Below, in pieces: positions 38,273-61,379 of a DNA stretch of 64,000 bases (position 1 is the stretch's first letter; each line of letters begins with the position of its first letter). A program made the position numbers and the translations under genes. The notes under the pieces were generated by a model, which was given only the letters and a program-made list of their open reading frames with translations, had not been told where the DNA came from and ran no database searches. Source of the DNA: Marsupella aquatica (lineage: Eukaryota > Plantae > Marchantiophyta); assembly GCA_973895155.1 (NCBI GenBank), contig OZ316891.1, forward strand, positions 23,497,899 through 23,561,898, in the 5' to 3' direction.

Positions 38273-39990
38273 TGTCCGGGGAACCGTTTGAAGCGGTCTG
38301 AAAACTAGTTTCTATAGTTTCTTAGGGACTGATTTGAGAATAAGTGTAAATCACTTTCTAAATACTTAATCTTTTATCAAATCTCATTTACTAGTTTCAT
38401 CTAAGTTTCTAACACTTGAGCATTTTAAAAACAAGTTTAAACATAAGTTCTTTTAAGAATCTTACACTTTTTTGTTTATTTTTATTGTATTTTTATGTTT
38501 ACCCTAATTTTTAACCACTAGTTTCTAAAGTTTCTCTAAGTTCATTCTTGTTTTAAATCTAATACATAATCCTTCCTTAAGTTTAGTTCAAATGAAAAAC
38601 TTTTGAATAAATTCTTTCCATCCATTTCATTTTTAAATTCAGGAGTTGCAATCAATTTTAATGGATAAACCACTCATTTATTTCTTAGGTTTGAAGTTAC
38701 ATGGGTTTTTGGCTGTCTCAAACTCTAGATTCTCAACGTCACTTCAGCTCAGGTCAGTCTCAGTTCATTAGGTCAGTCGTCAATTGTTTTGCTCAAACAT
38801 TTGCTACAGAGCCTCATTCGCTGACGAGCCTCCCTTTCGTCTTCATTTCTTTTCTTTTCTTCCCGGGTCTCTCCTTCAAGCCCTCCTTTCCTCCTCGTCT
38901 CAACTTTCCAATCCCATAAAAGGAAAAACCTTTGTCCAACTTCCCCTTCACCATCCATTCTTATTCCAAAACAGAGCGCCGATCTACTTCCTACTCCTTA
39001 GTTTAAACTAAATCATAAACAATTCTTGTTTTAATTCTCTTAATGCTCGGTCTATTCCTTCCTGGAAATTAAATCCGAACTATCTTAGGCTTCAGGTCAT
39101 TGTACTTCCATGGGAAACTGGTCTCAAGTCATTTTTTCCATTTTTCCACTTCAATGTTTAGCCTTCATTGCCATTCTCCTTTATTTTCCAAGTCATCCAA
39201 CGCAACATCTCCAGAATCCTTCCTGGAACTTTATCTTCATTTTTATCTTAGTAACATGGCATCGAAGTAGTCATCCCTTAGATCAAAACTACTTCTTCTC
39301 GTTCCTCTTAACTCAGCCGACTCCTCTCTCTCACTTGAGACTTTCGCAGCTATAATGCCTCCTTAAGTCACTATCAACTTTTCATTTCTTTACTGCAAAT
39401 CAATCTTCTTTCTGGATTTTCCCTCAACGCTTTATCTTCTTTTGCCGTTCGTTCAATCTCACGTTTTTATTTTTCTTTGCCATCTTTGCACTGTCGCTTC
39501 TCTGCTCTTCTCAGATCGCCTTACTCATTGTAATTCTGTTTCCAGCACCAGTTCCTCTCTCGCATCCGCCATAGCCTTAGACTCTTCACTTGTAAATTTC
39601 CTCTATCCACAATCACGTCATCCTGCGCTATTCGCCTTGCTCACTGGTTCTCTTTGTCTTCACCATAGCCTTGAATCTTCACGATCAATTTTCCCCTTTT
39701 CTCCAAATTTGCGCGCGATGCCCTTTTTTAGTTCCTCCATTCTTCTCTATCCCCGCACATTACTCCGCTATCTCTCTACCTCTAATTTTCACTTTCAAAA
39801 TTGTTTTCCCGTGCTCCTCCGACTGCTGTGCACTGCGCTCCAAACCACTCTAATCAAATGACCTCTCTAGTCTGTGCCTGCCTTATCCTTGTACATACGT
39901 TCATTCGTTTCAGTTCTTCTCTTCCTACTAAAGCTTCAGATCACCCCCTTGAAAACAAACCTTGTCGCTCTTCTTCGCCCCTCCTACAAG
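38273..39990. other. unclassified pyrimidine-rich segment, possibly an LTR start
   Basis: Begins TGT exactly where gypsy homology stops. No credible ORF. Serves as the target of MULE B. Confidence 0.25.
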
Positions 39991-40694
39991 GGGTATAACA
40001 ACGGTGACACGAAACAGGTAACAAAATTCCTGTTATCAGATAACTCTTAACTGGTAACAGGAAAGTCTTATGGTAAAAGTGTACTTTTTGGCTAAGTTTG
40101 CAAAAAATTAACGTCATTTTCCACCACATCATCAAGTTGAACGTCTTGTTAGTGCCAAATGTGACAAGGTCAGATATAAGCCAAGGGTGTGGTCACAGCT
40201 GCAAAGAGAGGTTCCAAACCGAGTGTCCATTTGTTCTACATGAATAATGTTGTCACTGAATATCCCTGCTATTTAGATACAGCATCATTTCAGAACAGTC
40301 CAGTTCAGAAAGCGCAGTTTGGCCTATGAGAAGGAAAAATAAAATCCATGCAGGGATGGAGTAATTTAGGGTGGGACCCACCCTAAATCCAGTTATAGGC
40401 TTAAACAACCAATCGGCGAAGAAGGGTTCTGGAGTTTGCAATATTGGAGCCGGACAGAGTGTGAAAACTAGCGCCCGGCGCTAACAAAGCTTTAACAGGG
40501 ACAAAAGTTTAAGTTAAGGGACAACGACATGACAATAACCAGATCAAATTCAAAACTTTGAAATATTAATGTTCTAGAACCAGCGCCAGGCGCTAACCAA
40601 AAGCAAGAAAAAACAAGTGTAATATCCGTTGACTACAAACAAAAACCATAGTATCCATTACAAAAAACGACAGTCTCTAGAATGTCGTGTTACT

Positions 40695-41023
40695 CTACAA
40701 ACCATTCACGTTCTGCCTATCCAGCACGAGTTTGACTTCCGCAACTGTGAAAATGGGCTGGCTACACAAGGTAGACTCCTCTACATGAAACTTGAAGACA
40801 TTTATAAACACCCAATACAAATGTTTACAAGGCATATATGGCTTGCCGCGAGAATGACGACGGAAGAAATCCTCACCAGAACAGGTTTGGAAGACGCAAA
40901 TATGGACAAAGTGTTTAGGGATCGAAGGTTCTCGTGGGTCCGGATTTTGAATTGCTTCCCAAATGCAATTCCAATACCCACATCCCACTCGCCATCCAGG
41001 ATCATAGCTTCTTTCCGAGCCGA
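40695..41023 (-). pseudogene. C-terminal SWIM-finger end of the element B transposase
   Basis: KPYMPCKHLYWVF is paralogous to 41515-41817. It reads on from 52820 across the 9-bp TSD (..HSTRME|SARKEAM..). Confidence 0.8.
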
Positions 41024-41071
41024 CTCCATTCGGGATATAACCACCGTGCTAGCAAATAGTAAATAGATATT

Positions 41072-41226
41072 CTCATACGAGCCAATTTTGCCTCGTACAA
41101 GCAAAATTTTGTCTCGTACGAGTAAACAAGTTTATCGTATGAGCATATCTATTTACTTGTACGAGTTTCTGTTTTCTTGTATGAGTTTCTGTTTTCTTGT
41201 ATGAGTATTTTCTTTTCTTGTATGCA
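41072..41226. repeat. subterminal array of 10-bp palindrome CTCGTACGAG variants, 20-22 bp period
   Basis: Copies at 41072, 41092, 41113, 41134, 41156, 41176, 41196, 41217, plus one at the right end (52741). Confidence 0.8.
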
Positions 41227-41514
41227 TTTTAGTTTCTTCTCTTCACGGTATGTAGCGTCCATATATGCAATAATTGTGCGGACAATATTATGGCGGGTCC
41301 CACCATTGTACAACATCAGAGGAAATTTCTTGACGATTTCACACAAGGACTCCAATATATTGCCACGAAATATGAAGTCAAAACAAAGTCATACAATACT
41401 AGCGCCCGACGCTAGTATTGTATTATACAAAAAAACAACACTTTAAGAACTCACACTTCTGCCCGTTAGAAAAGACAAACTACAATTGTAGCTATTCAAC
41501 GATAAAGCAACAGT

Positions 41515-44500
41515 CTACGTTCTCGTTCCCAACTGCCTATCAAGTATGTAACGGACTTCTCCCAACGTTAGAATTGGCTGGCTACATAATGTCGAATCAA
41601 GCACATCCAGTTTGAACACATTCTTGAACACCCAATACACATGTTTGCAAGGCATGTAAGGCTTCCGATAAGTATGCCGACAGTAGAAATACTCGCAAGA
41701 GCAACATGGGAAACAACATATCTGAACCCAATAAGAGGCGACTGATCTCTCATGTTCATGGGTCCGGATACAAAACTGTTTCCCCGACGCATTTCCACTC
41801 GTGATCTCTCTCTCCAATGACGCTCATCACTTCTTTTTCAGAGGCTTCAATTCTCTTCAAATGTGTTTGGGTAAGATGCACTCTTTGCAAGCATTTCTTC
41901 CCGTTCCTTGAAGCGCACCTCACAGATGGGTCAGTTAGGTTGATCCTCTCCGAGAAAAGATTGACATCAATCCGTAATGCAGAAGGCAACGGTGCTTCGA
42001 TTTCATCTCCACGGCCTTCGGAGAGAATAAGGCCTTGTTCTTTCAAAAATTGAATCTCTGCTCCAGAAAGATTGGTCCCTCTGGCAATTGGGAGATGTGA
42101 AGGAACATTGGGAATGTTCGAGACTCCTCTCCTTGTTGTGCTTCGGTGACAGTGGTTGTTGGGGCAAAACCATATCTGATCGTTATAAGGTTGGCCCCTG
42201 AACATTCTGCATCCTCTCACGGAAATTGCAACAACACCATCTGGATTCGGAAGGCCAACCTTCTTTACTCGATTTCGACATTCATCCTCGCATTCATTAC
42301 GACTACCTCCGCGTCCAAGGGTTCCGTTACCCCGTTTTGAGGTCCGACGCAACTGCCAGGCACCGGGAGGTACTTCACTTTCCATTGGGGAAACTGAATG
42401 ACAATATGTAGTCTCGATAGGTATTGCAGGCATCACTGGTGGGACAGAGGATCTCGTTGCTCGACGCGTAGGTGTGTCAATGACCACAACTTCCTCAGAA
42501 GCATCGCTTTTTGACAAATTATGGACCGCATCAATTCCACCGGCTGAAGGCGTAGAAGGCATTTTCTCAAAATCAGTGGAATGCAGGTTTCTCCTTTTCA
42601 AACCTTTTGTATTTGGTGAAGTAACAAGGATGGTATCATGCCTGTGCGAGTCTTTTGCCAAGACGTTCCCAGTTGCATGTCCTTTTCGTTTCACCGATCG
42701 AGTTACAACATCACCATTCAATGGAACGCTTCTTTCCAAATCAAACTCAGCAGCGTTCGACAGGAGGAGATTGGTGGCTTCCTCAAAGAGACGCGGTGAC
42801 CCCGCCAGGTCCGCCGATCTGAAGGCAAGCTCAAAAATAGTTGGGCCAGTTCCTCTGCTCAATCCCCTTTTGTATGCAGTATAAGCAGCAATTTGAGCAA
42901 CCGCTCTATTTTGGTCCGTTTTGCATCCTTCAAACAGACCAACCTTTTTTTTCTGTTGCCATGCTTTCATTCTAGCATGCCTAGATTCCGAACCAATACA
43001 ATTAGGAATCATCCCAGCCTCTTCGGCACTCTTGCTCTGAAACATTGCATGCAAGGGTCTAGTACATGCAAGAAATTGTACACAAAAGTGGCAACACAAT
43101 GGCAATAACAGTAGCGCCAGACGCTAATAAACTGATGATGATATTTCCATGTAAAGAACCGTTTAACACAGAATAAAGGCAGTCCTTACATCACGCATAG
43201 TCCAAACGGATTATTAGCACTCGGCGCTACTATTGTGGATAACAAACTCTTCTATCTCACACATGCTTCACTAGTGCCGAGCGCTATTAATGGGAACATG
43301 CATCCTAGAGCAATGTATAACTCACCAGTCTTATGAAGTTTCCCCATTGTCTCCATCGGACAACCCACCAAGACAGCCACCCTTGCAGCATCCGAAGTTT
43401 GCCTGAGTGACAATTGCCAGACCTCCACCAGTCATCGATTTCCCTCGAGATTCGATATGCTTTCAAGAAAGTTGGCGCGTTCCGAAGATGATCCCACATC
43501 TCCTTGTGCTCTCCGTGCTTTCCATCTTTTACACCTTCTCGGGAATGACGATGAAAAGATTGGAAAAAATGAAAGGCATCTGATCTTTCTTGCTCTGGGT
43601 TGGGTACATCGTCAAAGAACACGTTTTGAACAACATTCCAACCAGCCTGAGCATTGTCCGCCATGAATCCCCGAATTGTAACATCTTGTAAACCATTTTC
43701 ATCGGCAACCTCTAACATCAAACGCCAGGCTCTCTCCAGAGATTTTGCATCTTCGGCCTTTAGCTCACAAGTGAATATGGTGCAAAGTGCCCGGTAATGA
43801 TGATCATATACATGGGCACTGAAAGTAAGCCAATCTGCCGTGCTTCGATGCATGACGTCAAAACTTACCCATGAACCCTCTAACGACCCACCAGGTTTCA
43901 TTCTTTGGAGCAGGTCCAGACCACTCCCGTCACCTTTTACGGTCATTTTAAAGATATGAGCACTCTCGTCACGACAGCCTTGACCAGGGAGCAAGAACCT
44001 ATGAAGAAAAGGCAGTCGGATACACTTTTGCATCCTCACAAGAAATTCCAGTTCCCCTTTCCCCTTCTGATCTTGACGGACACTCCTTAAGACGGATGCA
44101 AACTTTTGAGGAGATGCGACGACAATTAGGGACTCCCAGATTTCCTCCTCTTCTTCAAGAGAGATTTCTTCAACAGAGGCCTCGCAAAATGTATTCGTCA
44201 GTGTCTCAGTCGCAGAGTTTTTAATCCCTGCTGGGGATGCCATGGGGTTTGCAGTGAATCCCTTCTCCAGATGAGACCTTGCAACCTTTTCTGCCTCCCT
44301 CAAAAAGACCCGTCGACTGGGATGATTGTGAAATCCCATATGAACAGCTAGTCACGACATCTAGGCCAAAGACTTCACGCCAACTTTTGCAGATGGATAC
44401 ATGTAGAACATTAGAGCAGGGCAGGCCTCAACGCACATCGGAGGTTTGGAGCAATGGTGACAAACAACTCCACCTTCGGAGATCAATTCCCCAACTCGGA

Positions 44501-45362
44501 ATGGGCCCGAAAGTTTTGGGGTTCTTGCCCACATCTCATTATTTCAAAACTTGTTGTCTTTCCACCACGGACAAGCATTATTTCGACATTGCAGCGATCC
44601 CATACACTGGACTTTCCCGAAATCCCACATTTTCTTTGGAAGAACATTTGAAGACGTTTTTACAATCCGAGTCCAATAATAACAATCCTTACCACGATCC
44701 ATATCTTTCAAATGTTCACCTTTTGCGTTCACACAGTCTACAGGGGGTAACTCAAAAACCACATTCCCATTGTAAGATGTGGGAAGACTAGGCACTACAT
44801 GATGAACAAAATCACTCCCCCTTATAAACCGAGACAATTCACTATGACCTTTGGATTTCAAGATTGTATCCATTGCACTCTGCCGGTACACATTCAAAGG
44901 CCCAATCTTTTCTCGATCCGCATTAGACTCCTTTTTAACCTCGAATGGGTAAAGTGGAATCTTCTCTCCGAGAGTAGTTGTCGCTTGCTTATCATCTCCA
45001 GAACTTTCTGAGAGTTTGATGACATCGAGTTTAGCCGCTGTGGGAGGACGAGTATAGGAGGCCCCAAAATCTCTCAAAACAAAAACCTCATATTCTTTCG
45101 GAGCCTCCAGAGTCCAATATCTTTGACCATGAACAACATCGTAGAAAACTGGAGTCTCCCCCAAACAAACCGACACTAACGAGATTGCTAAAATAGACTC
45201 CTTGGGGACATCAAATCTCACTCCCAAATATTCCTCTGAAACACGCTTTGATTCAGATGATTCAAGGATGGGAATTGTGATTACATCCCGAGTGTCCTTC
45301 CTCGTGACAACGATATTTTGAGCCATGGCTTCAAAAGAGGGATATGCATTTGCCCCGCGCAA
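41515..45362 (-). pseudogene. element A transposase: GCM/WRKY-like Zn domain, MULE DDE core, SWIM finger
   Basis: CMGSLQCRNNAC...CHHC...HMGFHNHP; WVSFDVMHR (D), GFMADNAQAG (D), DAFHFFQS, GSESRHA (E); CSC...PCKH. Intron 43037-43325; a few stops and frameshifts. Confidence 0.8.
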
Positions 45363-45501
45363 AATGAAATATGTTTATCATGAGATCCGAGTACGAGAAG
45401 TAAACGTTCGATTCTCATTATAGAGTTGTTGTGGATTTGGACACACTCCATCAATGACGTTTTGTCGTCTTACCAACGGCAGGATTCGGGTTCATAGTTA
45501 C

Positions 45502-45650
45502 TAGCGCCTGGCGCTACCTCTAAGTGTAAAACACTCTTGGGTGAGGACTACAAATGCCAATAATAATAGCGCCTGGTGCTACCTCTGGGTGCAAACATTC
45601 TTGGGTGAGGAGTACGAAGGCAATAAATAATAGCGCCTGGCGCTACCTAT
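45502..45650. repeat. ~65-bp tandem repeat, each unit carrying the 15-bp palindrome
   Basis: Unit tagcgcctggcgctacctct...cttgggtgagga.tac.aa.gc.aataa, spacings 65 and 64 bp. Confidence 0.85.
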
Positions 45651-46106
45651 TTCAATGGACTTGAAAACATTCAATGGAAGGATAAGTACAATAACGTGAT
45701 ACAGTACGAGTAATTAAGTTGGCACGCTTGAAGATCTCCACTGGATCTTCGTGAATCCGATCCGCCCGGGTCCAAATGTGTCAGAGAGGAAGCGTCCACG
45801 AAAGTTATATCAGAGGGGCCTCTTTGAAGTGGGTACCCAGGACCAAGTGCAAACTCTCCTTATATCTAGTCGTTCCCCTCGGATGTCCTCATTGTCAAGC
45901 CATTCTTGACTGAGTCGCAGTTGTGCCTCATCTTTCGGGCGCGTGGTTCCCGTTATCGCTTTCGGGCCCAGTTGTTCTTTTTGGCTTTCATGCGCGTTAT
46001 TGTTCTCCTTCTCATCCTTGTTTCTCATTCTCGTCCTAGTTCACGCTGTTGTCCTCCTTCACATTCTCGTTCGCGCTTCTTTTTGTCGTCCTCTTCCTCA
46101 CTTTCA

Positions 46107-46535
46107 ATGGCACCTCCACGAGGGAAGGCAAAGGAGGAGGCACTTCCCCCGAGTGACACAGACCGGGAGACCCCCATATCAAATAGCTTACCGCCTTGGT
46201 TGAATGCCGAGAGGACAACGGTTCCAATCTCAAAGAAGGGGAAACTCATCTCAAAGACAAAGAATGTCCCAACTGTGGGCCGCAGCAAAGGATCCAGTCG
46301 GCCAAATGCGAGCGGCCCAACTTCTGTTCCCGCTAGGGATATCGCCACTGCTTCAGTCGGCCGTCCAAGAGCCGACACTATCTGCACGAGAGTCTCCGTA
46401 TCTTCTTCATCTACTGAGAGTGATCGTTCTTCGAGCGGGGACTCATCACCGAGCAGGCGAGGATTTGCGTGGTATGGATCGAGCGATTCGAATGACGACT
46501 CCGATGCGTACAAGCCAAGTTGGTGGGAAGACTGA
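46107..46535 (+). CDS. Ser/Arg/Lys-rich ORF of unknown function inside element A
   Basis: MAPPRGKAKEE... lies between two palindrome clusters. No recognisable domain and no counterpart seen in B. Confidence 0.3.
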   Translation: MAPPRGKAKEEALPPSDTDRETPISNSLPPWLNAERTTVPISKKGKLISKTKNVPTVGRSKGSSRPNASGPTSVPARDIATASVGRPRADTICTRVSVSSSSTESDRSSSGDSSPSRRGFAWYGSSDSNDDSDAYKPSWWED

Positions 46536-49030
46536 TTTCACGTTGTCAGAGCGTATTGTTTGAGTGCTGGAGAGACTTGGAGGATCCACCGAGGTTGATA
46601 GGATTTGTTTTCACTCTTTTCTTCCGATAGAAAACCCATACGGTTCCTTCATTGTATGCCGAATTTCTAGTGTAATGTAACATTTTGTATATGAACGGCA
46701 CAGCCGTTCGTTTTTACCTCGGTGTCATTGATTTTGAATTTAGAAGACCAAGCCTAAATTTCCGGTTCTACTCCCGTGTTTGCATTGTATTTCTGAATGC
46801 GTACATGATCTATTTCTTTGAAACACACGTTTGCTGTCAATGTTTTTACTAGCGTCTGGCGCTATTATGAGAAAAAAGTGTCTGTAACCCTGTCATGACA
46901 AGTCTTATCTCTAAAGTGTTTTTGATAGCGTTGGGCGCTATTAATGAAAGGAATCACAAGGCAGGAGTTATTTCTACTTTTATTTCAACAAATTCTGTTT
47001 AATTGATGTGCATTTTAATAGCGCCAGGCGCTATTGTAATTCATTGGAATATTCGTTGAATGAATGGGTTCATGTGGTCATGTTGTTGTCATTGGACTCG
47101 GATGTCATCATTTATTTGAATACTAGCGCCGAGCGCTAATACAGTTGGCTTGTCGATACCTTCACAATTGTGTTGATATTACTGCCCGTAGCTACATTTG
47201 AAAGTATGTTGAATAATAGCGCCTGGCGCTATCCACAACTATCGACACTGATGTGGTTACAACGGTCACTTTCCAACGGTAATATTATAGTAGATTGAGG
47301 TTCACGGAACCCTTTTTGCTTTTGTCTGGGATGAAAGTCCAATCGGATAATGCCATCTGTACTTGGGACCGTTGTACTCGAATGGCTGGTTCTATTGTAT
47401 CGGTGTTTAATACGAGGTGGAGATTGCTCATTTGGGATAATTTAGTCCGTCTATGCGCTCAGACCTCGGATTGTATGAGTTTGTCAAGTGCATATGTGCA
47501 TCCTTTATTGGTCCCGTACATTTTGAGATGTGATCGTCACAAGAACTGCACGGCGCGTACGACAGTGCCGGGTGGTCGAGTCACTCTCCACGGAAACTTT
47601 TGGCTAGGTGATACGAGAATGGGGGAGGCTGATGGTGGTTATTCTGAGTCCTCTCAATCTTTGTTCGCTGGTTCAGTATACACCCATCGCGTCACTCGAT
47701 CGACTGCGTCCCTATCGACTTCCGAAGCTGAATCTGCACAGCCCTTCCCGAGGTCGAGGAGAGGGAGAATGGACCCTAAGGAGGTCTCCATGGGTGAAGT
47801 CAGTGACATAGGCTTATCGATGGACGAGGTAATATCAAAGCACGCATTGTCATTCAGGAAGGATTTTCGAGGACTCGATAAGGAGCCACCTCAAATTCCT
47901 CTTTGTAGATTGCTCCCCATGGAGGTTGTTCGAACATTACAGAAAGAAAGTTCATCGATCAAGAAGTTGAAAGAATCATTCCGTGTCATCGGGTACAACT
48001 CGCGCATTGGGATGCCTTTCTATGTTCAGCCTGCAAATGCCGACGGGGTTTCTCATATATGCACCAGCGAGATCCGGGACTCTTGGGATCCAATCTGGGT
48101 CGCAGAGAACAACAAGTTTGAGGAAGAGTGTGATCCGGACCCAGCGTTCCATATTCTAAAAGATAAAATGTTTTGTGTGTTTGACGGAAATCATCGATTG
48201 TACTCGTGGTCAATCGTCACGAGGGAGAATCCGGACAACTTGAAGTATCATCCTCGTGTGATTTGCGTCATTTACAATGGTGACAGAGGTTCACTAGTTG
48301 AGCTCGAGGCGGCAATGCACACCGTGAACCAGTAAGTTCTGTTCATTAACTGTTGTTACCCTTGTCATTCATTTTGGACCAAACATGCTTTGCGAAAGTG
48401 TTCATTCCCCAATTTTTGCTAGCGCCCAGCGCTACTAATTCCTTTTCATTGCATCCAGGCTTGGACAAGCAGTCGTCGAGCCTTCCTGGATTCTTGACGC
48501 GGACAGAATTTCCCAAATTCTGTCGCGTGATCTTGATCACTATAAGCCACTAATCGACAGCGCGAACATGGCAAAGTTTGAGGCAATCCAAAAGAAGACG
48601 AGAAAGGGATCTTGGTTTACACATAAAATGCCACAGGATGCTCTCATCTACATTCTGTGTGTGGACAAAATCAAGTCTTACTCAAATCAATTTAAGTCTG
48701 ATATGGCTTTAACCAAAGCTCAAGGGGCTTCTTGGTCAGAAGAGGAGACCACAAAGAGGCATGAGGCAATGATGAAGGAGGCGACCAAAGATTGGTCGAT
48801 CAAAGTGACGAAGATCACCCCTTTACTTCATCCGGATTTTGGAGATTATTTGGGAACCTGTGCTGAGATGTATCCCGTAACTGAGAAGAACAAACGGGAG
48901 AAGAAGCCAGACACAGTTGTATGCACAATGGATCGAGCCAGGTTGTTTACTATTGTTTCATACCTGGATCCAAAATTGAGGTGCACCCTTCTAGTAGCCC
49001 ACTGCACTCCCGAGATTCGGAAACAGTTTT

Positions 49031-49358
49031 CTCGGGGGGGTCACTTCCACGGAAGTGACACATCACGTGCGACGAAGTATAGGCCCATTTAAATGGGTGT
49101 GGCGGAAGACTTCCAAAGTTTGGTGGAAGAACACATAGGGCATGTTTTATTGATTGGTCGACTTTAAAGAACACATAGGCCTATTTAATTGCAAAAAATA
49201 CTTTCTATAAAGTTTTTAGGGGTTTTTTAATAAAAAATGACAAAATTTTAAGAAAGAAAGGGCTTTGCAAAAAATTATTTTTCACTTTAAAGTTAGGGGG
49301 GTCAAACCCTAAAACGTCGCACGCGATGTATGACCCTCCATATAGTGACCCCCCCGAG
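49031..49358 (+). mobile_element. 328-bp MITE, copy 1
   Basis: TIR CTCGGGGGGGTCACT/AGTGACCCCCCCGAG, 8-bp TSD acagtttt. Removing it restores EIRKQF|FHLASVND, as in element B. Confidence 0.95.
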
Positions 49359-49694
49359 ACAGTTTTTCCATCTTGCAAGTGTCAACGACGAGCCTGTGAA
49401 GCAGTGGTGCCATACATGGCATACTTGGAATTCTGTGGAGGGAATTGCAACTGGAATGCTTCACACTTCCTTCAAACAGATTTCTGACCGGATGCCGGCT
49501 GACCGTCTCACAAAGTCTGGGTGTGAGTCAATGGAGGCCATGCTTAAGATCATTCTCGATGAATTCAGAAACTTTGGGGATCTTGTCAAGGCAAAATTCT
49601 TCAACAACTTGTGGTCTTCCAAATATGCGGACAAGGAAGATTACACAGAGCGGAACCGGAAGAGAGCCAAACGATATCTATACCGGTTTTACAT

Positions 49695-50022
49695 CTCGGG
49701 GGGGTCACTTCCACGGAAGTGACACATCACGTGCGACGAAGTATAGGCCCATTTAAATGGGTGTGGCGGAAGACTTCCAAAGTTTGGTGGAAGAACACAT
49801 AGGGCATGTTTTATTGATTGGTCGACTTTAAAGAACACATAGGCCTATTTAATTGCAAAAAATACTTTCTATAAAGTTTTTAGGGGTTTTTTAATAAAAA
49901 ATGACAAAATTTTAAGAAAGAAAGGGCTTTGCAAAAAAATATTTTTCACTTTAAAGTTAGGGGGGTCAAACCCTAAAACGTCGCACGCGATGTATGACCC
50001 TCCATATAGTGACCCCCCCGAG
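49695..50022 (+). mobile_element. 328-bp MITE, copy 2
   Basis: Same TIRs, 8-bp TSD ttttacat. One difference from copy 1 seen by eye. Confidence 0.95.
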
Positions 50023-52819
50023 TTTTACATGTGGATGGAGCTTAGATCTCCTGACACTCTATGGGCATACCCGGCTGCATTTCAGAAATGGGTGTCTATC
50101 AAAGATGGAGACGCTCTTGCCGACCTGTATTGATGTACCCAGCGGAGGGAAAGTTTCCACCACGATCATTGTCGGAGTGGGAGAGACTTCACTGTCCCTG
50201 GTACCTCGACACAGACAAATGGGATTTACCGTTCGACAAAGCTGAGAAGGATGCCTTCATGAAGTTGCAAAAGTCCCAGATCCCTACCAACTATGTGTCT
50301 ACAATGAAGCAAGGTCTCTAGTCTGATGTTGACGAATCTGCATCTGAGTTACAGAAGAATTGTGAGTCTCTTGTCATGCACGTTGACCGAAGCCGTAAGC
50401 CAAGAGGAAAGGCGAAGAATGAGTCAGCTGCACCAAGTGACTCCACAAGGTCCTTCAAGAAAAGTCAGTAGTCTAAGCGCTTTTTGGTTACTTGTTGGCG
50501 CTACTTATGCAGGAGTTTCATTTGGAAATTCCTTTGATTAATAGCGCCTGGCGCTAGTCTGAAAGGTTGGACTCATTCAAGTTTTTGTGCCTAACAGGAG
50601 GTCGAAAGTCCGACACGGAGGTCCCGGCTGCCGAAGGGAAGAATGATGCAACTCCTTAGGCATCGGAGGCAAACACTGGAGCTCAAGAAACCCCGGATCA
50701 AGGGACCCCGGATGGTGCTGGAAAATCCATTGTCCCTCTTGACGCAACTAGCACGAAGAAAAAGAAAAAGAGAGGCGCCGGTGAGGACAGAGCAGCATCA
50801 TCTACTCGAGACGTTATTTCCTATGGACTCCAGAGAGATGTCGGGAATTTTAAGCGAAGGTGTTCTAGACACTGTTTTGTGGAGTCCAATTTAAACGAAT
50901 TTTACAATTTGGTATTTAACAAGGGGATGAAGCCTATGTGGGTTACTAAAGTTGAGGCCTGGGGAAAGGAATTGGTAAAGTCAGGAGACAGAGAGAAGGG
51001 AGTAATGCGTGGCGGAAAAGAGAGGGGCTTTGGTGTGGATGCTGGTTTCATCTACATTCCCACTGGGTTAAAACCAACACTTCTTGATCGGAAGGTTCCC
51101 AAGTGGAACCTTCAGGATTACACTATTCCCAGCTCTTTCTTCCGAGCCATGGAGCCGTTCCTTGCAGACGATGGCCTACTTGCAATTTTACACAGAGGAG
51201 ACTATGATCAGGTATCTGAAGTGATTGCGGCTTGCCAGGATTCTAAGTGTTTCCAGTGTATTTCAACCCACCATGTGGTCATGACTACACCAATGTATAG
51301 GCCCCGATCTGATACTCAGGTAACAATTCCTCTTGCACATACTAGCGCCCGACGCTACTATCAGCATTCGCAATATCTACAATTCACTTATCTTTTGTAA
51401 GGATGAATGGTTGACTAGCGCCAAGCGCTAATATATGTGTCTGTTTTCTTATACTGCCTTCATTGGGAAACTGTGTTGCAGATATTCACACTTACTCTTA
51501 ATATATTTTGCCGCATTTTGACAAAGGGAAGGGTCCCGAAAGACCCCAAGTTCCGGCCACTATCGAATGAAGAAGACCCTTCCGTCACTAACATTATTGG
51601 GTTTTTGTTGCCGCGACATGACCCGACTCCTGAGCTCCAATTTGCAGGAAATTCACGATTGCCTGTGGGTTTCATGCAAACTATTTTGGAATTGGTGACT
51701 CTTCCTAGAGATATCGTTATGGACTGGACAGTAGGTTCCGGTAGTACGTTTGTGGCTGGAGATTATTCTGGTCGCTTTGTTGTTGGGCTGGAAAATCGTC
51801 CAGAGTTTGTTGATACTTCCGGTAAGGTCTTCCTCGATCTTTTATAGAACAAAGAAGTGGTTGCACCAACTCCTCCTAAGAAGATTCCTGGAAGTAAGAA
51901 GCAGGACAGGCTCCGTGCTATTCTAAATTTTGATTCGGAAGACGAGGATGAGGGTGGCAATGCTTCTCAGCAATCTAAAGATGATGAGGTGTCGAAGAAT
52001 GTGGTGGACCTTGGATCTGGAGATGAGGACAGTGAAGAGTCAGAAGAGTAATTTTCTTTAGCTTTCTTTCTCTTGTTGTATACTTTTTTCCAAAGAACTC
52101 CTCTACTCCCTTATGTCTAGAAAATTCGCCCGATTTCCCGACTTCGACTAAAGAACTCCAGTTCAAATTCTCAGGTTAGAGTGGAATCTTCGGAGGCATT
52201 TTCAACTTCGAAGGAACGTCTCTAGGAACGTTGTACAGACCCTGGAGAAGCCATTTGTTCTCCCCTCTTATGCTGAAAAGGCGGCACGACGGGCAGATTC
52301 AGTCAGGACGCTTACTTGGTAGAGTAAGGGTCTTAGACTCAAGAGAGGCTCAGATAGAAAGTTTGTGCAAAATCACTTCGTAGATGATATTGCAAAATCC
52401 AAGTATGTGGACGACGAAGCAGAGTCCACTGATAGATCAGAAAGTAGCGGCTCTGAATCGAACTCAGAGTCGAGTGGTGGTTGTGGATCTGGTCTTTAGT
52501 TCTCCTTGTTTTATTTACCCGTTTATGGAGAACGACGACACTCAATAAGAACGCCGTGACGTGTCGGATTGGAGTAGCGCCCGGGGCTATTACTGTAGCC
52601 GGTATTTCAAAGAGGTTTTTATTTGGTTTTTTCCTTATAGCGCCCGGCGCTAGTATAAATGTACTCAATGGCCGCTTCACGTCCAATATATGTGACAATA
52701 TTTTCATACCCTTCGGTGACTTTTTTTGGGTGCACATTTGCTTGTATGAGTTTTGCTGTTTGCTGTTTACTGTTTGCTGTTTGCTATTTGCTGTCACGGA
52801 GAGATCCCCCCTCCATTCG

Positions 52820-55800
52820 TGTACTGTGAGCCAGTGTTAGATTTGATCGAGGTCTGGAGTTTCCTCGGGGGTCTCACTATATGGGGACCTCCCCATCACC
52901 TCCGACGTTTTTAGGCCTCGGACCCCCTAAAATGTGAGAAATTTTTTAATTTTTTAACCCCTATAAAGTTGGAATATTCTTGGAATATTCCAAATTTTGG
53001 ATTAAAACGACCCTAATGTTCTTATAAGTCTCAAAATTGAATTTAAAAGACCCTATTGTTCTTCTACAAAAATTCTTAAGTCTTCTCTTAGAACCAATAA
53101 AATGACCCTATCCTTCGTCGCACGTGATATGCCATTTTTGTGGAAGTGAAACCCCCGAGGGAGTTTCTCCCATTCCTTGTCCGAAGGCGTACGTTGGGAT
53201 CGGCGAAATTGATTCTTTCAGTAAATGCGTTTACATTAATTCTCAAGTGCAGCGCGAGACGTCGCAACTGTTTGGACCATCGAGACTCCCTGTGCTTCAA
53301 GGAACTCTACCTCGGCAGGTGACAGGTTGGTCCCTTTCACAACTGGCAAGATATCCGGCATAGGAGGAAGGCATTCAACACCACGACGCGGGCGGCTCTT
53401 GTAGCATGTTTTGTTTGGGCAGAACCATATCATTTTTGCAATGGGTGTGCCTCTTAAAATGCGATGTCCGCTGACAACAATGCCGACAACACCTGCTGCC
53501 GAATGGAACCCAACTTTTTTCACACGATTTCGACACTCATCCCTCTCAGAATTTCCATGCAAAGTCCCATTGCACTGAGGCCCTGCCCCATATTTGGCCG
53601 TCCGCCGCAAATGCCAGGTCCCTCTAGGAACGTCCATTTCCAAAGGAGTTGACTCTGTCGGCAAATGTTGAAGAACAGCCGGAGCACTGAGTGGGGGTTG
53701 CGACGATGTTGTTGTTCCTCTGGCTTCAGGGGTGTTTGCGAGGGAATCACTTCCATTCGTTGAAGTGTTGCTACCGCCGATGTCGACTATGGGATCTGTT
53801 ACATTTGCAGGAAAGGAAGTGAAGGTAGTGTTGTTGAGATTCTTCCGTTTGAACCCTCGAGTATTTGGTGTAGTGATGAGAATGGTGTCATGCCGATGGG
53901 AGTCTTGTGGTGAGACAATCCCAGTTGCGAGTCCCTTCCTCTTAACCGACTTTGTGACAATATCTCCATTCAGAGGAGAGCTCCTCTCCAGATCCAAATC
54001 AACAGCGTTTGAAAGAATCATGTTGGTTGCTTCTTCAAATAACTTGGGTGAACCAGATTGGTCTGCGGATCAAAATGCTAATTCCCAGATAGTTGGCCCC
54101 TTCCCTCTATTGAGTCCCTTCCGATACGCGCTGTAACCCGCAACTTGTGACAAAGCTCGATTTTGATCAACTTTGCATGCTTCAAAGAGACCCACCATTT
54201 TTTTGGTAGCCCATGCTTTCATGGAGGCGTGCCTTGACTCTGACCCGGTATAGTTTGGAATGAGCGCACCTTCTTCTGCACTTTTGCTCTGCAATAAAAC
54301 CCGTCCAGACAAAATTTACTTCTTTTGTATAAGCAGCGCCAAGCGCTAGCAATGAGTAGGAGATAATAAAAGAAGATTTATCGGTAAAAGTTTCATTTTC
54401 TGTAAAGTTTGAAGGTTTTCTGAGTGAAAATTAAAGTAGCGCCTGGCGCTAGTATAAACACACTGAGGTTTGACTAATAAACGCATCAGGAAAACTTACC
54501 ACACAAATGAAATTCCCCCACTGACGCCATCAAACAACCCACCAAGATATCCAACTCTGCAACATCATCAGCTTTCCTGGGACACAATTTCCCGCTTGCC
54601 ACCATAACACAATCTCCCTCGAAACTCGATACGCCGCAACAAACGTTGGAGCATTCCGCAATTTCTCTCATAGTTGTCGATGTTCTGGTTGCTTACCCTC
54701 CAAAACTCTTTCTGTAGAGTGTCGATGGAACGACTGGTAAAAGTGAAATGCATCAGAGCGTTCACGTTCAGGGTCTAGGTGCCCTCCAAAAAAGATATTG
54801 CGAACGGCGATCCATCCAGCCTGAGCATTGTCAGCCATAAAACCTTGAATGACAACGTCTTGTAACCCATTTTCCTTACAAACCTCAATCATAATTCTCC
54901 ACGCTTTCTCAAAGGACTCCGTGTCTTCAGCTTTTAGTTCGCATGTGAAGATTGTACAAAGAGCTCGGAAGTTGTGATTGTAAACGTGTGCACTGAAAGT
55001 AAACCAGTCGGTTGTCACTCGCTTCATCACATCAAAACTCACCCAAGCTCCTTCCAATCTTCCGCCAGGTTGCATTTGCCGGAGAAGATCTACACCAGAT
55101 CCATGACCCTTGACTGTCATTTTGAATATATGGGGCCTATCTGCTACACAACCCTGACCCGACAGGAGGTACCTTTGGAGGAAAGAAATGTTATTTGATT
55201 TTTGCATCCGAGCTAGGAAATCTAACTACCATGACCAGCCTGGTCCATTCAAACGCTTTGACAAAGCGATGCAAATTTCTGGGGGGTAGACAGTACCATG
55301 AGAGACTTCCAAATCTCCGTTTCTTCAATATCTACTATGTTGTTGACGTTTTTGCAAAGAGCTTTCACGAGCAAACCGGTTGCAGAATTCAAAATACCAG
55401 GCGGCTTTGCTAGAGGATTGGCTTCATGATTTTTTCTTATCAAATCCTCAGCTATCTTCTCAGCGCTCCTCGAGAAAACTTTCCTACTTGGATGGTTATG
55501 CTCACCTATATGAACTGCGAGCCGAGACATGTGACTACAGGTCTTTGTATCAAGAAGGACTTGAGGGTACATATAAAACAAGTGAGCAGGGCAAGACTTC
55601 ACACAGAAAGGAATCTACGCACAATAGTGACAGACTACACCACCCTCTTCAATCAACAAACCCACCACGTGTTGGCCACTGAGTTTAGGAGCACCATGCT
55701 AGGCCTTTGCATTGCATCTCTTCTTTCGCTGAAAGTACTCACAGGACTTGTTCCTGCACTCGATGAACCCGGTACACGTAACCTTACCAAATTCCCAATG

Positions 55801-56523
55801 TTTCTTTGGATGCACGTTTGCAGTTGTCGGAAAAATTTGGGTCCAAATGTAACAATCTTTGGCACGGTCCATGTCACGAAGTCTAGATCCCTTGGAGAGC
55901 GTTCCCTCAATGGGAGGCAGTTCAAATACAACATTTCCGTTGTACTTGTCTGGCAAACAAGGAACTTGCTCATGCCGGAAGTCCCCTGCCAAGATAAATC
56001 TTGACAGTTCACTATGTCCCGTGGCCTTGAGTAAGGCGTCCATCGCACTCCTCCGGTAGACTTTATGACCAACTCCGGAGGTAGCCACCGGCTCATCCTT
56101 AACAAAAGCGGAAACCGGAACTTTGTACTGCGAAGGAGGAGTGGGTGCAACATCACCATCTTCATTGTCAGATATGTCAACAACAACAACAGGAATGTTC
56201 CCAACTGCTGGTTCCGGAGTGACACGTCTGACATTAAGCGTGTAACTAAGCCCGGCATTCATATGCCAAAAGTGTACTCCCTCATCTACATCGAATGCCG
56301 CAGCCCGTTGAAGTTCTCCACTCGTCGATTCCTGTGGAACAATGGACTCAATATCATTCATCCTCAAATCAAATCTCCCAAGGTAGGTTTCACTAACTTG
56401 CTTGTAAGCATCAGAGACTTGCACGGGGATGTTGACGACGTCTCCAGTACAAGCACATGTAATTACAATTGAGCAAGACATTGTGGAGAAAATGAAGGAA
56501 TCAACAAAGCAAATTCCTCCCAA
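52820..56523 (-). pseudogene. element B transposase (GCM-like plus MULE DDE), paralog of A
   Basis: YNGNVVFELPP, CTGFIECRNKSC, HIGEHNHP, WVSFDVMKR, GFMADNAQAGW, GSESRHA. Intron 54289-54499 is at the same position as in A. Confidence 0.8.
52864..53159 (-). mobile_element. 296-bp related MITE, opposite orientation
   Basis: TIR CTCGGGGGTCTCACT/AGTGAAACCCCCGAG, 8-bp TSD ggagtttc. Interrupts the B transposase. Confidence 0.9.
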
Positions 56524-57416
56524 ATGGAATGCTTATACTAATGCGTGAAGACGACTGACCGTTATAAAAGTAGTTTGAATACGACATAGAATTGTGTCCG
56601 TTGAAATCATAAATGTAGAGTTTGTCCTTTTGCCCCGTTAAGTGCGGGTGTCAGGGATATTTTTTTGTGTCAAAATGAACACATATAGGCCAAGATAATT
56701 CACATGATTTCAACAGCGCCTGGCGCTACCAAAAATTCCAGGATTTATAAGGTTAGAATCCAGTCACACAGCAGACTAGCGTCGGGCGCTAGCATTACAG
56801 TGGACACCAATAAGTCTACTTTTTTGTATCTAAACATGCAATATCATCCAAATTTAGGCACCATTTAGGGATACATGTACTAGCGCCGGGCGCTAGTATT
56901 GGTACACCATATTTAAGGACCAAATGTGAACAAAATTAAACTTCCTACGTCCTAAAGTTCTTCATTTCCAAAAACATTTGCCTAAACTATGACAAAAACA
57001 TAACCTTTAATAGACCACGGAATGGGTAGCATCGGGCGCTATCTATTGAACACATTAAACTGTATGACCAATGTGGTTAAAATTTTACTAGCGCCCGACG
57101 CTAGCATTGCATTACCAAGTTTTAGTAGTCTGGTCAACGGTAATATTTAACGGTAACTACGGTTAGCGTGATCTTCACAAAAACAGTTTAGCGGATTCTA
57201 CATTAATATCTTTCACAGTTCTTAGATTGTCGCTTTGTTTTAACAATAACTAATACCCAATTTCATCGTAACGTCTCTTAAATAGATTACATCAAGGGAG
57301 ATAGCACTGATCAATCGGGTATAATACTCCATCAATTGTTAATTTGGTACGGAGATTCAGTACTCAATCGTGAGAATTGTAGTGTACGACCGTTCGTACA
57401 ACACTCATCGCGGGAG

Positions 57417-58898
57417 ATGATGGATGCAGTCCCCTCCTCGTCGAGGGGGTATAGTGTTGTGGGGGATCGTGATCATGGCTATTGCGAGTCTTCTAAGTCT
57501 TCATTTTCAGGTTTGGTGTATACACGTCGAGTGACGAGGTCAAGCGCATCACTTGTTCCCGTATCAAGTAATTTGTTTCCGAAGCCGACATGAAAAATGA
57601 TGGAGAATGTTGACACATTTGCAATCGGAGATGTCTCATTCTCGAAGACCGACCTTATTTCAAAACATGTCATGTTCTTTGGGAAGGATTTCCGAGGGTT
57701 TAACAAGGAGCCTCCTAGGATTCTGCTGTGTTGGTTGGTGCACATGGAGGTCGTCCGCACTTTGCAGAAAGATAGCTCCTCCATTGACAAGTTGAAAGAC
57801 TCTTTTCGTAGTATGGGATACAATTTGTCGATAGGAATGAGGTTTTATGTTCAGCCGGCGGACGCTGAGGGAGTGACGCTCACTTGCACACAGGAAATTC
57901 ATGATACTTGGGATCCAATATGGATATCCGAAAACAAAAAGTTCGAGGAAGAATGTGCGGCAGACCCCAATTTTCTTGTTCTGAAGGATAAGATGTTCTC
58001 AATTTTTGACGAGAACCATCGGTTGTACTCCTGGACGCTTGTCACTAAGGAGAATCCAGAAAACCCAAAATACCACCCGCAAGTGCTTTGTACTGTCTTC
58101 AATGGGGACAAGGGTTCACTGATTGAAATTGAAGCGGTGATGCACACCGTGAACTAGTAAGTTTGTCTTTATAGCATATCTCTAAGAGGAATTGTTTTAC
58201 GAGCGCCCGGCGTTGCTTGAATGTTTTTCTAATTCCTTTGTTTTCCTTCAGGCTTGGACAAGCCTTGGTCAAACCGTCATGGATCCTTGACGCAGATCGA
58301 ATCAAGAGGATTTTGATTCACGACCTGGAGTACTATAGTAAGCTCATCGACCCTGCCAATTATAAGAAGATTGAGCAGATCAGGCTGAAGATGCGGAAAG
58401 GATCCTGGTACATGAAGAAGATGCCTCAAGAGGCTCTTGTCTATATTCTATGTGAGAATAAAATTAAATCATATTCTAACCAATTCAAGCTAGACATGGA
58501 GTCCGCTGCGGCCCTAGGTACCCCCTGGTCGGCCGAGGAGGTTTCCACAAGGCATGCCATAATGATGAAGGAGGCCACCAAGGACTGGGCAGTGAAAACA
58601 TCAAAAATCACTCCTTTGTTGAGTCCTGAATTTGAGGACTTTCTATCTACGTGCGCATAAATGTATGCTGTGACGGAGAGAAATAAGCAAGAGAAGAAAC
58701 CTGATACCGTCTTGTGTACAATGGACCAAGCCAGGCTTTTTACTGCTGTTTCCGCACTCGACCCCAAGCTCAGGAGTACTTTGCTTATTGCCCATTGCAA
58801 TCCTGAGCTCCGAAGGCAATTCTTCCATCCGAACAGCGTGAATGATGATCTAGTAAAACAGTGGTGTCATACCTGGATTACGTGGAACAATGTAGAGG
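57417..58898 (+). pseudogene. element B accessory gene, ParB/Srx-like N-terminal half (truncated by insertion)
   Basis: Colinear with A: MEVVRTLQK, FSIFDENHRLYSW, MMKEATKDW, VKQWCHTW. Intron 58157-58251 is at the same position as A's first intron. Confidence 0.75.
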
Positions 58899-61379
58899 TG
58901 TGACGCCAATGACATGGTCCTTATTTTGTAATCTGATTAAGTAGGTTGCTGTATGCAAGGAGTAGCTATTGATATTGCATAACAATTAGCAAGATGGCAA
59001 GAATAAGGGCAATCATGGCGTTGAGTGTTAGGGAAATAAAAGGCTATGTCGTAGGTAGTCGGCGACCATATCTCGTTCAATATGTCACCAAATCCGGATC
59101 TGTAAAGAGCATTGGGAAGATCTGGTCAAGGCGAGTAAAATCGATATGAAACACTTGAGAAACGGAGGTGTATTAAGAAAGATACGGTCTGATTAGTGTG
59201 ATGGGTTAACTTGTGGCCGAAATTAGCGGATTCAGCTTCAGTTTCGGGTTAACCCAAGCTCGACCACGGCTTAGCTTATGTGAGCACGGCTTTAGCTTAG
59301 CTCAAGTAAGCACGGCTTCAGCTTAGCTCAGGTAAGCACGGCTTCAGCTTAGCTCAGGTAAGCACGGCTTCAGCTTAGGCTTAACCCGGGTTCGGACTAG
59401 ATTGATCCCGGGTTAGACTTAACTCGGGTTAGCCTAAACTCGGGCTCAGGTTAGCATAGGTAAGCTCGGGTTCAGGCTCAACTTAGGCTAGGTTAGCGGA
59501 TAGCGGATAGCGGGTAGCGGCCTAACCCGAGACCACGGGTTAGCTCTACTCGGGTTAGATAGGATAGCTAGGTTAGCCGAACTCGGGTTAGCTATGTAAC
59601 TCGGGTTAGCGCAGCAGTGAGTACCCCCTCTCGGTTGCGGGGGCATAACTCTCTGTGTATTTGACCAAATCGGCTATAATTGACCTCGTTGGAAAGAGGA
59701 GCTCAAGCCGTTTCCAACGCTGCTATCCACGCAGCAAATGGTTGAATAGAGAAATCAGGAGAGGAGGCGCAAGCTCGCGAAAACCATGGAGGAGGGCCAA
59801 ATCCAAAGTACATAGCCAATTTGAGATAGAAATAAAGCTGTGAGTTAGGGTTCAGTAGTTAGAGATAGTGGCGGCTCTGTTAGGGCTGGGATGGGGCTCC
59901 AGCAGCGTAGCATCCACCCATTTGGGCTCAAGGAGAGAGTATATAGAGCAGCCCCCCGGTAGAGGGGGGGGGGGACTTCAATTGTGTGATCTCACTTAGA
60001 CTGAGCAGCAGGGAGGAGCTCTATGCAAGCAAGGCTGGACTTGGACGCTGCGTGTTGGGGAGAGCTTGGTTGTGCTATTACTCAGGGAGTAATCAGCCAA
60101 GCTTCACAGCAATGGGTTGCTAGGTTTGCAAGCTGGATTGTGGCTCTTTCTAGTGGGTAGCACAACTGGGTTCTTTTCCCCCGATACAGAGCCTTGGTGA
60201 TAGGTGATGTATTGGTGATTGTAAACTGTGGGGAGGATGTCAATTTGATTTGTGGTGAGCACATTAGGGAGGCTGAGACATTGATTGAGGGGCAGCAGGA
60301 GGAGCATTTACAGTTTAGTCTGGCAAGGCTACGTGATCCATGGGGAGTCCCGGCCTTTGTCTGGTGGAGAGCACTAAGGGATCTATGGCCAGAGCGGAGC
60401 TTGCAGGGCAAGCGTGAGGCCGGGCCTCATTGCAGTCTGGGGTAGATCGCCGTTAGGCCTGGTACCAGCTTTGAAGTCGAGTCAACTATGTATGCGTAAC
60501 TTGACGTTCTGAATTGGAGGTGTGAGATCTGTATGTGCCCCCAAGAATGAAGTGCAGTGAAGGAGGTTGAGTTAGGGATTGAGTTTGCAAGGCAAGTACG
60601 GGATTGGTTTGAGTCCAATCTGCCATCGCAATCTGGAGTGAGTCGGGCTCAGGTTCAGGATTGAGCTTGCATGGCAAGCATGGGGCTTTTAGGGCAAGCA
60701 CGTCGTAATCTGGAGGAGACAGCCTTCGGGCCTAGTGTTCGGATCAAGTGTTCTCAGTGAACTGTTGTGCACATCTTTGAATCTAACTGAGTTTTCCTCT
60801 CAGGCCTCATTTCTCTCATGGATGTGTGTGTGTGTGAGGCAATCTGAGTGTATGATGGGACTAGCAGCGCCACTGAGAGGTGTACAAGGTGCATTGAAGC
60901 GGGCTGGGTGAGGACTGTCATAGCTCTGATTGTTGAGAGTGGAATGGCAGAGTGGTGGGGCAATGGCTTAGAAGTCCCTAAGTCGGGAATCAGTCAGGAG
61001 TCACTGGTTTATGGGTACATTCCGGCGGCGGAATAGAAACATACCTATGACAGTAAGCATACGTATAGACCTATGCGCACCATAGCGCTAGGCCCTGTGT
61101 GTACGGGCCCAATATGAAGACCCCTTCTCACCAGAACTATCATGAGCGCAGACCTGATCCCCAACCTTGGTTCCTTGGGATTGAGCTTGGGTGATGTGTG
61201 ATAGAGTCTTGCTATGATAGTCTGGTGTTAAGGGCATAAATTGGTGTTTAGAGGCCTTCACAACATCCCTTCGTGATCCTCAGGTACAAGGAGATGGTTT
61301 TGGCACCCATAGTGACTATTTTGGTGTTAAGACCCATGTGAATCGCGTGACAAGAGGGGATTGCAGTGGGGATGTTACA
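58899..61379 (+). repeat. probable long LTR (TGTGACGCC...GATGTTACA)
   Basis: Begins exactly where the B gene is cut and has inverted TG..CA ends. No TSD or PBS found. Confidence 0.5.
59230..59610. repeat. short tandem repeats (26-bp agcacggcttcagcttagctcaggta ~3.5x; aactcgggttag-like units)
   Basis: Directly visible at 59283-59376 and 59385-59610. Confidence 0.8.

Follow-up and report, generated by a model that had tools for sequence, protein, structure and literature searches.

A palindrome under apparent selection in two liverwort Mutator-like elements, a candidate docking site for their ParB/methylase-like accessory protein

Why should one 15-bp palindrome recur in the introns and intergenic gaps of two transposable elements and stay out of their exons? 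The question is raised by a 64,000-nucleotide stretch of Marsupella aquatica DNA (contig OZ316891.1; the whole stretch is called the window), in which TAGCGCC-N-GGCGCTA marks two related Mutator-like elements (MULEs), A (about 40.1-52.5 kb) and B (about 52.5-58.9 kb, truncated). Both have the same layout, a minus-strand transposase gene and a plus-strand accessory gene with a divergent promoter between them. As far as sequence can tell, the palindrome is real and selected, and we propose, with middling confidence, that it is a docking site for the elements' own accessory protein, which would bind as a dimer and keep cognate copies active against host methylation.

Distribution of the palindrome and constraint on it

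The window contains nine exact copies of the palindrome and 27 copies at up to two mismatches, all inside 40469-57103; dinucleotide shuffles gave means of 0.00 and 0.05, respectively. A three-mismatch scan added 58201, together with 61083 and 61681 outside the elements, at a chance expectation of 0.81. With a position weight matrix, 58201 scored 13.9 and all other non-site positions at most 3.9, and it is counted below as a 28th, degenerate copy extending through 58215. The exon models used here are based not on RNA but on splice signals, A/B conservation and collinearity with the Riccia protein P0168, and on the relatives P0001-P0006, whose similarity stops at the same intron position. None of the 28 sites overlaps the inferred exons, though inferred coding DNA makes up 75% of 40400-58900 (P about 1e-17). 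Three sites lie in the transposase intron of A and two in that of B, five in accessory-gene introns, eight and five in the divergent promoters of A and B, and five in 3′ regions; that is, 10 of 28 are in internal introns and 13 in promoters. These regional counts, the avoidance of inferred exons and the lack of copies, at up to two mismatches, in the approximately 45 kb of other transposons in the window all bear out the original prediction. It had also reported that the palindrome extends to 33 bp at 41391-41423; the extension is real, but it is the sole long one among the 28 sites, and complementarity of the flanks does not exceed that of re-paired flanks. Three of the copies (45502, 45567 and 45631) sit within a 64-bp tandem duplication.

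The motif is the same in A and B, which are near saturation at four-fold degenerate sites (71 of 235 identical). After motif masking, the transposase intron and the promoter aligned between A and B no better than shuffles, and accessory intron 1 was borderline (1 of 100 shuffles reached it), as expected from the earlier remark that the non-coding DNA of the two does not align. Conservation of the motif between A and B far exceeds that of neutral sites and flanks, the opposite of what the prediction had named as evidence against itself. Among the 56 half-sites of the 28 palindromes, 4 of 112 arm CpG cytosines were changed, compared with 13 of 71 inner methylatable cytosines (P=0.001), in line with the remark that the outer arms mostly keep their CpGs, and the arm bases A2, G3 and C4 were nearly invariant. 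C6>T changes were found at 6 of the 15 half-sites with a CCG context and at 2 of the remaining 41 (P=0.003), a pattern that reads as a signature of past CHG methylation; because the changes favor CCG contexts, the sites appear to have gone through times of methylation, which the arm CpG has nevertheless outlasted. Among the 40 differences listed between the window and public contigs, one falls in a motif (43219), where other copies carry the consensus base. With motifs masked, the elements had an observed/expected CpG ratio of 0.74-0.78, and their two promoters one of about 1.0, against 0.55-0.57 in the remaining window, which is compatible with periods of low methylation.

The sites also tend to keep in phase with their neighbors on the helix. 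The 16 neighbor spacings below 300 bp gave a mean cosine of 0.59 at a period of 10.4 bp (P=4e-4) and 0.52 at 10.5 bp (P=0.002), and the phasing retained P=0.012 after a scan of periods 8-13. In element B alone, the mean cosine was 0.94 (P=3e-5), all six spacings being at most 0.1 turn from a whole number, and a 103-bp site pair recurs in both transposase introns although their flanks do not align. The phasing suggests same-face, cooperative binding. Together with the substitution spectrum, it fits a double-stranded DNA site under a symmetric protein, and these two features and the conservation lend sequence-level support to the prediction of a selected site for a dimeric protein.

The elements and their two genes

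The features of A and B are listed below by window coordinates, with the strand in brackets (a dot where none is assigned) and the basis of each assignment. ORF, open reading frame; MITE, miniature inverted-repeat transposable element; TSD, target-site duplication.

40469-41414 (.): 3′ region of A, palindromes 40469, 40581 and 41400; motif scan
40680-41052 (-): second SWIM-like 3′ module, frameshifted, an alternative last exon or a remnant of another copy; 72.7% DNA identity to 41533-41703, translation
41515-43036 (-): A transposase exon 2, with putative third catalytic residue (NCIGSES), cysteine cluster, SWIM-like C-terminus and a frameshift near 41756; translation, SWIM match weak (E=1.6)
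43037-43325 (-): A transposase intron, palindromes 43112, 43215 and 43272; GT/AG ends
43326-45332 (-): A transposase exon 1, with Cys/His zinc-binding region, Mutator/IS256-type core (SFDVM, MADNA, DAFH) and premature stops; translation, fold of relative P0004
45333-47608 (.): A divergent promoter, palindromes 45502, 45567, 45631, 46850, 46926, 47019, 47124 and 47217, CpG observed/expected about 1.0; motif scan
46107-46535 (+): small S/D/E-rich ORF amid the A promoter sites, absent from B, no family match; ORF list
47609-48331 (+): A accessory exon 1, ParB/Srx-like domain with DGNHR motif; profile leads, alignment
48332-48458 (+): accessory intron 1, palindrome 48420; motif scan, splice signals
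48459-50467 (+): accessory exon 2, helical middle region, split by two MITEs; collinear with P0168 residues 325-732
49031-49358 (.): MITE of 328 bp, CTCGGGGG termini, 8-bp TSD, no palindrome; empty-site joint skipping 336 nt
49695-50022 (.): second, near-identical MITE, 8-bp TSD; TSD, repeat comparison
50468-50597 (+): accessory intron 2, palindrome 50542, donor atypical and boundary approximate; motif scan
50598-51319 (+): accessory exon 3, first half of the beta-class methylase fold, YIPT at the motif IV position; the relatives' motif-IV profile matches 50981-51220 (independent E-value, iE, 5e-4)
51320-51481 (+): accessory intron 3, palindromes 51343 and 51416; motif scan, splice signals
51482-52049 (+): accessory exon 4, N6_N4_Mtase motifs X-I-II (DWTVGSGST), stop at 51845, acidic tail; PF01555 E=1.5e-7
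52575-52652 (.): A/B junction palindromes 52575 and 52638, in the 3′ region of the B transposase or the right arm of A; motif scan
52800-54288 (-): B transposase exon 2, without the SWIM end, split by a related MITE (52864-53159, 8-bp TSD); translation
54289-54499 (-): B transposase intron, palindromes 54334 and 54437, 103 bp apart as in A; motif scan
54500-56481 (-): B transposase exon 1, with stops and frameshifts; translation
56482-57428 (.): B divergent promoter, palindromes 56714, 56777, 56881, 57027 and 57089 at spacings of 63, 104, 146 and 62 bp; motif scan
57429-58900 (+): B accessory gene, with ParB-like exon, intron 58157-58251 holding the degenerate palindrome 58201, and exon 2 ending near 58900 at a high-depth repeat; profiles, depth

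The accessory gene of A is split by introns and encodes about 1,100-1,200 amino acids, with a predicted ParB/Srx-like domain, a helical middle and a beta-class N6/N4-methylase domain. P0168 (1,207 amino acids) is collinear with A's exons, in favor of one fused gene. The exon 4 match to PF01555 (N6_N4_Mtase) is above the curated cut-off, and the best structural-sequence and phage matches of this exon are beta-class methylases. Motif IV lies N-terminal to the S-adenosylmethionine (SAM)-binding motif I, as in the beta class, and the SAM motif is kept. The catalytic motif [DNSH]PP[YFW], as defined in the available text of PMC4738411, occurs in none of the six relatives that matched the search pattern (DLPT twice, DMPT, DMPS, DVPF and DFPI), four of which have T or S at the base-stacking position; two distant loci described below, L012 and L033, have NVPS. 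Judged by these motifs, the accessory protein is not a canonical amino-methylase.

With exon 1 as the query, a full HMMER search of 50%-identity clusters retrieved 231 relatives at E ≤0.001. Neither the methylase exon nor the ParB-like exon gave any homolog in word-seeded searches, and the latter had no relative in viral contigs or phage records. Of 20 exon-1 relatives that were looked up, 12 come from Riccia sorocarpa, five from Adiantum and three are unnamed or hypothetical; full-length relatives were found in Riccia and partial ones in Adiantum. In a tree of the 109 of 164 ParB-like domains that cover at least 110 profile positions, A and B were sisters in a clade (support 0.93) whose named members are all from Riccia, which points to a probable liverwort host. 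The [DE]GNHR motif is present in 42 of 50 aligned exon-1 members; we take DGNHR to belong with Srx/DndB/DUF262 and not with partitioning ParB, whose CTP motif is GxxR. The ParB leads for exon 1 are Atlas scores of 0.94-0.95 (one cluster 11% ParB_N) and a ParB-like PHROG match at E=0.07, and DndB matches were weak and confined to 2 of 50 relatives. In Pfam scans that covered the exons and 27 relatives, N6_N4_Mtase was the sole match above noise, a profile search detected no helix-turn-helix (HTH), no ParA-like ORF was seen in the elements, and the accessory protein has no profile similarity to the transposase (hhalign probability 0.4%).

For the transposase, a Foldseek search with the model of its relative P0004 (predicted local distance difference test, pLDDT, 59) gave the IS256/Mutator transposase ISCth4 as its three top matches (E 1.2e-3, narrowly missing 1e-3; probability 0.97-0.99), whereas Pfam gave no MULE match in either window copy or in 11 relatives, the one named relative being from the liverwort Calypogeia fissa. 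On these comparisons, the transposase belongs to a divergent Mutator clade outside current Pfam models, and its modeled DDE transposase fold of the IS256/Mutator type makes the elements probable MULEs. The Cys/His zinc region is presumably GCM-like, and the SWIM-like CxC...CKH pattern is kept in the relatives. A wide structural search with the P0004 model gave generic helical matches only, all with Z <8; residues 39-128, at the N-terminus, were modeled as a ubiquitin-like fold (DWNN-like, Z 7.1, within the chance range). Neither terminal inverted repeats (TIRs) nor a TSD, of the 8-11 bp usual for MULEs, were found for element A, whose ends are uncertain, and B is truncated; MULEs lacking TIRs exist, according to the accessible part of PMC6446971.

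A and B are multicopy, because contigs from four public runs carry them at tens of times the depth of a flanking contig (X2: 12 for the flank versus several hundred, a summed depth and not a copy number). The multicopy coverage of A seems to begin around 40.1-40.3 kb, and a 25-bp near-perfect palindrome lies by its left end at 40365-40389. The SWIM-like duplicate at 40680-41052, downstream of A's transposase, has its own splice-acceptor-like AG and palindromes on either side, and 52110-52495 (+) at the A/B junction is an interrupted ORF remnant with an acidic serine-rich end and multicopy depth. Both window copies are decayed, with stops, frameshifts and the three MITE insertions (49031-49358, 49695-50022 and 52864-53159). 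This MITE family has CTCGGGGG...CCCCCGAG ends, 8-bp TSDs and a depth far above that of the host elements, and its empty sites are present in public contigs. The rest of the window appears by eye to be plant-like repeat DNA with Copia-, Gypsy- and CACTA-like ORFs; a long, unannotated ORF cassette that includes a coiled-coil region is present three times, at 18000-21400 (+) and 32700-38300, with two copies facing opposite ways, and probably represents accessory ORFs of long terminal repeat retrotransposons.

Distant relatives and the candidate binders

We compared 46 distant loci with transposase cores of 26-40% identity, many of them redundant, short or decayed; none carries the window palindrome at up to two mismatches. 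A ParB-like exon stands divergent to the transposase in two of them (L012 and L041), and L033 keeps a motif-IV remnant. Among the 46 loci, the motif-IV profile matched L033 only (iE 0.004) and the motif X-I profile none; the L012 equivalent of motif IV was recognized by eye and by 74% DNA identity to L033. These three loci have palindromes of their own: in L012 and L033 the palindrome is 24 bp long, with nine and six copies in 51-bp arrays that lie immediately before the methylase-like exon, and in L041 it is about 36 bp long, with seven or eight copies in a 64-bp array in the divergent promoter. Clear arrays near the transposase were found only here, in the loci with accessory-gene remnants; the tandem arrays in L010/11, L016-19, L022/24, L029, L043 and L045/46 were not tied to the element. 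The centers of the three loci's palindromes are C/T- and G/A-mixed, as would be expected of decayed GC-rich cores containing GCGCC-like words, although this is a lead only. Different palindromes in distant relatives fit co-evolution with an element-encoded protein.

Similar palindromes occur in bacterial DNA. Five phage-satellite-like loci (L047:4544-5134, L049, L051, L053 and L054) each have a winged-helix gene whose 3′ end carries four copies of the pattern gTAGCGYYNRRCGCTAc; L049, L051 and L054 are from Stenotrophomonas and L053 from Lysobacteraceae, and a capsid gene lies near the L047 site. These are likely replication-origin iterons, and the resemblance to the plant palindrome is probably convergence, the pattern having been searched for directly; in a comparison of about 170 proteins, the bacterial winged-HTH protein did not match the element proteins significantly (best E=0.02). 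In a Bacteroidetes metagenome-assembled genome (MAG; L052:154-300), the palindrome occurs as a 21-bp tandem repeat, and in an Ilumatobacteraceae MAG (L048 and L050:5001-5076) as a paired repeat.

From the distribution, the constraint, the gene architecture and the motif turnover in three loci, we infer an element-encoded symmetric binder. The accessory protein, which we see with about even confidence as a reader or shield, is favored over the transposase or a host factor because beta-class domains are usually dimers (commonly homodimers, in the available text of PMC10406627), the site layout is VANC-like and the arrays lie in gene-retaining loci. A dimer of this protein would contact both half-sites, the in-phase clusters would let the protein load cooperatively, and its spreading along the element may be the work of the ParB-like domain. 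The methylase domain, with its D-hydrophobic-P-(T/S) motif, would more likely read or shield DNA than write a mark. The outcome would be local loss of 5-methylcytosine (5mC) and transcription of both divergent genes, and turnover of the site sequence between subfamilies would give family-specific self-recognition. A bolder, parS-like version, in which Mutator transposons of liverworts and ferns acquired a ParB-methylase module of prokaryote type whose fusion protein loads at the phased palindromes, spreads as a nucleoside triphosphate-dependent clamp and writes or mimics N4-methylcytosine (4mC) or N6-methyladenine (6mA), keeping host 5mC silencing off its own family, seems rather doubtful to us.

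Several observations weigh against docking by the accessory protein. The ParB/Srx-like assignment of exon 1, held with moderate confidence, depends on weak matches and the motif, and the accessory protein yielded no recognizable DNA-binding fold: the two-sequence model of its ParB-like exon had a pLDDT of 37, and profile searches of solved structures were empty. Because 44 of the 46 distant loci, some long ones included, show no ParB-like exon, the accessory gene is either not universal or decayed beyond detection. The 10.4-bp period was first noticed in these data, the phasing is weak in element A alone (P=0.05), and it falls to P=0.07 under the most conservative collapse, one spacing per size class. 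Among genomic copies of 46800-47280 (40 of 42 rows covered), the 70 defined motif bases hold 2 of 37 variable positions, against 5.4 expected, which is not significant (P=0.08). The CpG ratio has no peak beside the motifs (0.69 within 100 bp versus 0.81-0.85 at 100-500 bp), and the high CpG of the elements could equally be explained by young age.

Binding by the transposase itself, through its Cys/His zinc region and either as an activator or anti-silencer or for transpososome assembly in a TIR-less element, is in our view unlikely. It has precedents, which also count against an accessory-protein binder: in the available text of bioRxiv 10.64898/2026.08.24.746577, the AtMu1 transposase recognizes motifs and lowers the methylation of cognate copies, and Spm TnpA depends on densely clustered motifs. 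The lack of detected TIRs and the scarcity of the ParB-like exon among the 46 loci would suit it as well. However, the AtMu1 and TnpA sites concentrate at termini, whereas here most sites are in internal introns or promoters, and the three loci with clear arrays near the transposase are those with accessory-gene remnants. That the accessory protein is an active amino-methylase, marking the palindrome or its surroundings as self with 4mC or 6mA and thereby blocking 5mC and its deamination, appears decidedly improbable: the beta-class motif order, the kept SAM-binding motif, the near-invariant arm bases and the first Asp and Pro of motif IV, kept in all six pattern-matching relatives (one with DVPF), speak for it, and 4mC exists in liverworts via DN4MT1 (available text of 10.1101/2021.02.12.428880), but DN4MT1 has TSPPY, and neither the six relatives nor the window (YIPT) nor L012/L033 has a canonical motif.

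A host transcription or chromatin factor, exploited for expression in, for example, germ or dividing cells, would account for the 13 promoter sites, and GC-rich palindromes presumably resemble host factor sites; against it, the other transposons of the window lack the motif, the relatives use different palindromes and the exact motif was not found in the literature searched, so we give this explanation as little credence as active methylation. Least probable of all, and largely excluded, are RNA or single-strand hairpins and neutral relics of a tiny insertion or tandem duplication. The 33-bp extended palindrome and the 64-bp duplication would agree with such origins, but the hairpin reading was rejected on a 1-nt loop that cannot fold, no compensatory changes and no excess flank complementarity, and the mismatches show no G-U bias on the transcribed strand and the sites no Rfam match. 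The TSD-flanked mini-insertion, which the original prediction had itself named as a way in which it might fail, was likewise rejected, with no TSD of at least 5 bp at any of the 28 sites (25 without any, the rest matching 2, 2 and 4 bp), and the motif is retained across the saturated A/B divergence.

Comparison with known systems

Docking of an accessory protein at these sites would amount to a candidate independent anti-silencing system in seed-free plants, built from bacterial/phage-type parts, with a ready-made site and a candidate protein. The available text of PMC5735166 and PMC10398659 describes VANC-type anti-silencing from Arabidopsis and its relatives and calls its spread from short motifs over whole elements enigmatic; the ParB-like and methylase-like domains suggest concrete mechanisms for spreading and for touching DNA methylation. 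The analysis also exposes a large unannotated protein family, the 231 clusters, and a divergent clade of Mutator elements that Pfam does not detect. It might help to explain how amino-methylases such as DN4MT1 entered the genomes of liverworts, and a tool for sequence-specific epigenome editing could come of it. The mostly open-access literature searched describes neither a ParB-methylase gene carried by a Mutator element nor this motif.

The methylase part resembles beta-class methylases (M.PvuII, M.MboII, CcrM, rotifer N4CMT and Marchantia DN4MT1) in having motif IV before motif I and a PF01555 match, but has a non-canonical catalytic motif and lies in an intron-split gene of a eukaryotic DNA transposon. 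In bacterial ParB-parS systems, a ParB/Srx-like domain is likewise found beside multiple 15-16-bp palindromes, but here no HTH was detected and no ParA seen. A methylase is also linked to a ParB-like domain in phage ParB-terminase-locus methylases (available text of PMC4738411), whereas N4CMT and DN4MT1 are host genes with SPPY (TSPPY in DN4MT1, in the accessible part of 10.1101/2021.02.12.428880). With Spm TnpA and AtMu1, the elements would share clustered family-specific motifs under an element-encoded protein; there, in the available text of bioRxiv 10.64898/2026.08.24.746577, the sites are terminal or subterminal and the binder is the transposase or derived from it, whereas the accessory protein here is dissimilar to the transposase.

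The closest parallel is VANDAL/VANC (PMC5735166 and PMC10398659, in their available text): both are Mutator-type with an accessory gene, lack evident TIRs, and have a short motif, often in tandem arrays and differing between related families, piled up in the introns, intergenic and terminal non-coding regions that PMC5735166 gives as VANC targets. The family-specific motif enriched in non-coding DNA is likewise found here, with other motifs in L012/L033 and L041. VANC motifs are, however, non-palindromic and 8-9 bp long, in contrast to the 15-bp palindrome with helical phasing; the ParB-like and methylase-like protein is set apart from VANC-type families by Pfam scans, not by direct comparison with VANC; and the host is a seed-free plant, in which anti-silencing is suggested by analogy. 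Because the Pfam scans gave no VANC homology and the site is a phased palindrome, we do not class the elements as members of VANDAL/VANC, although they would seem to work like it. Taken together, the sequence comparisons present them as a so far undescribed form of sequence-specific regulation encoded by transposons, unusual in its parts of prokaryote type.

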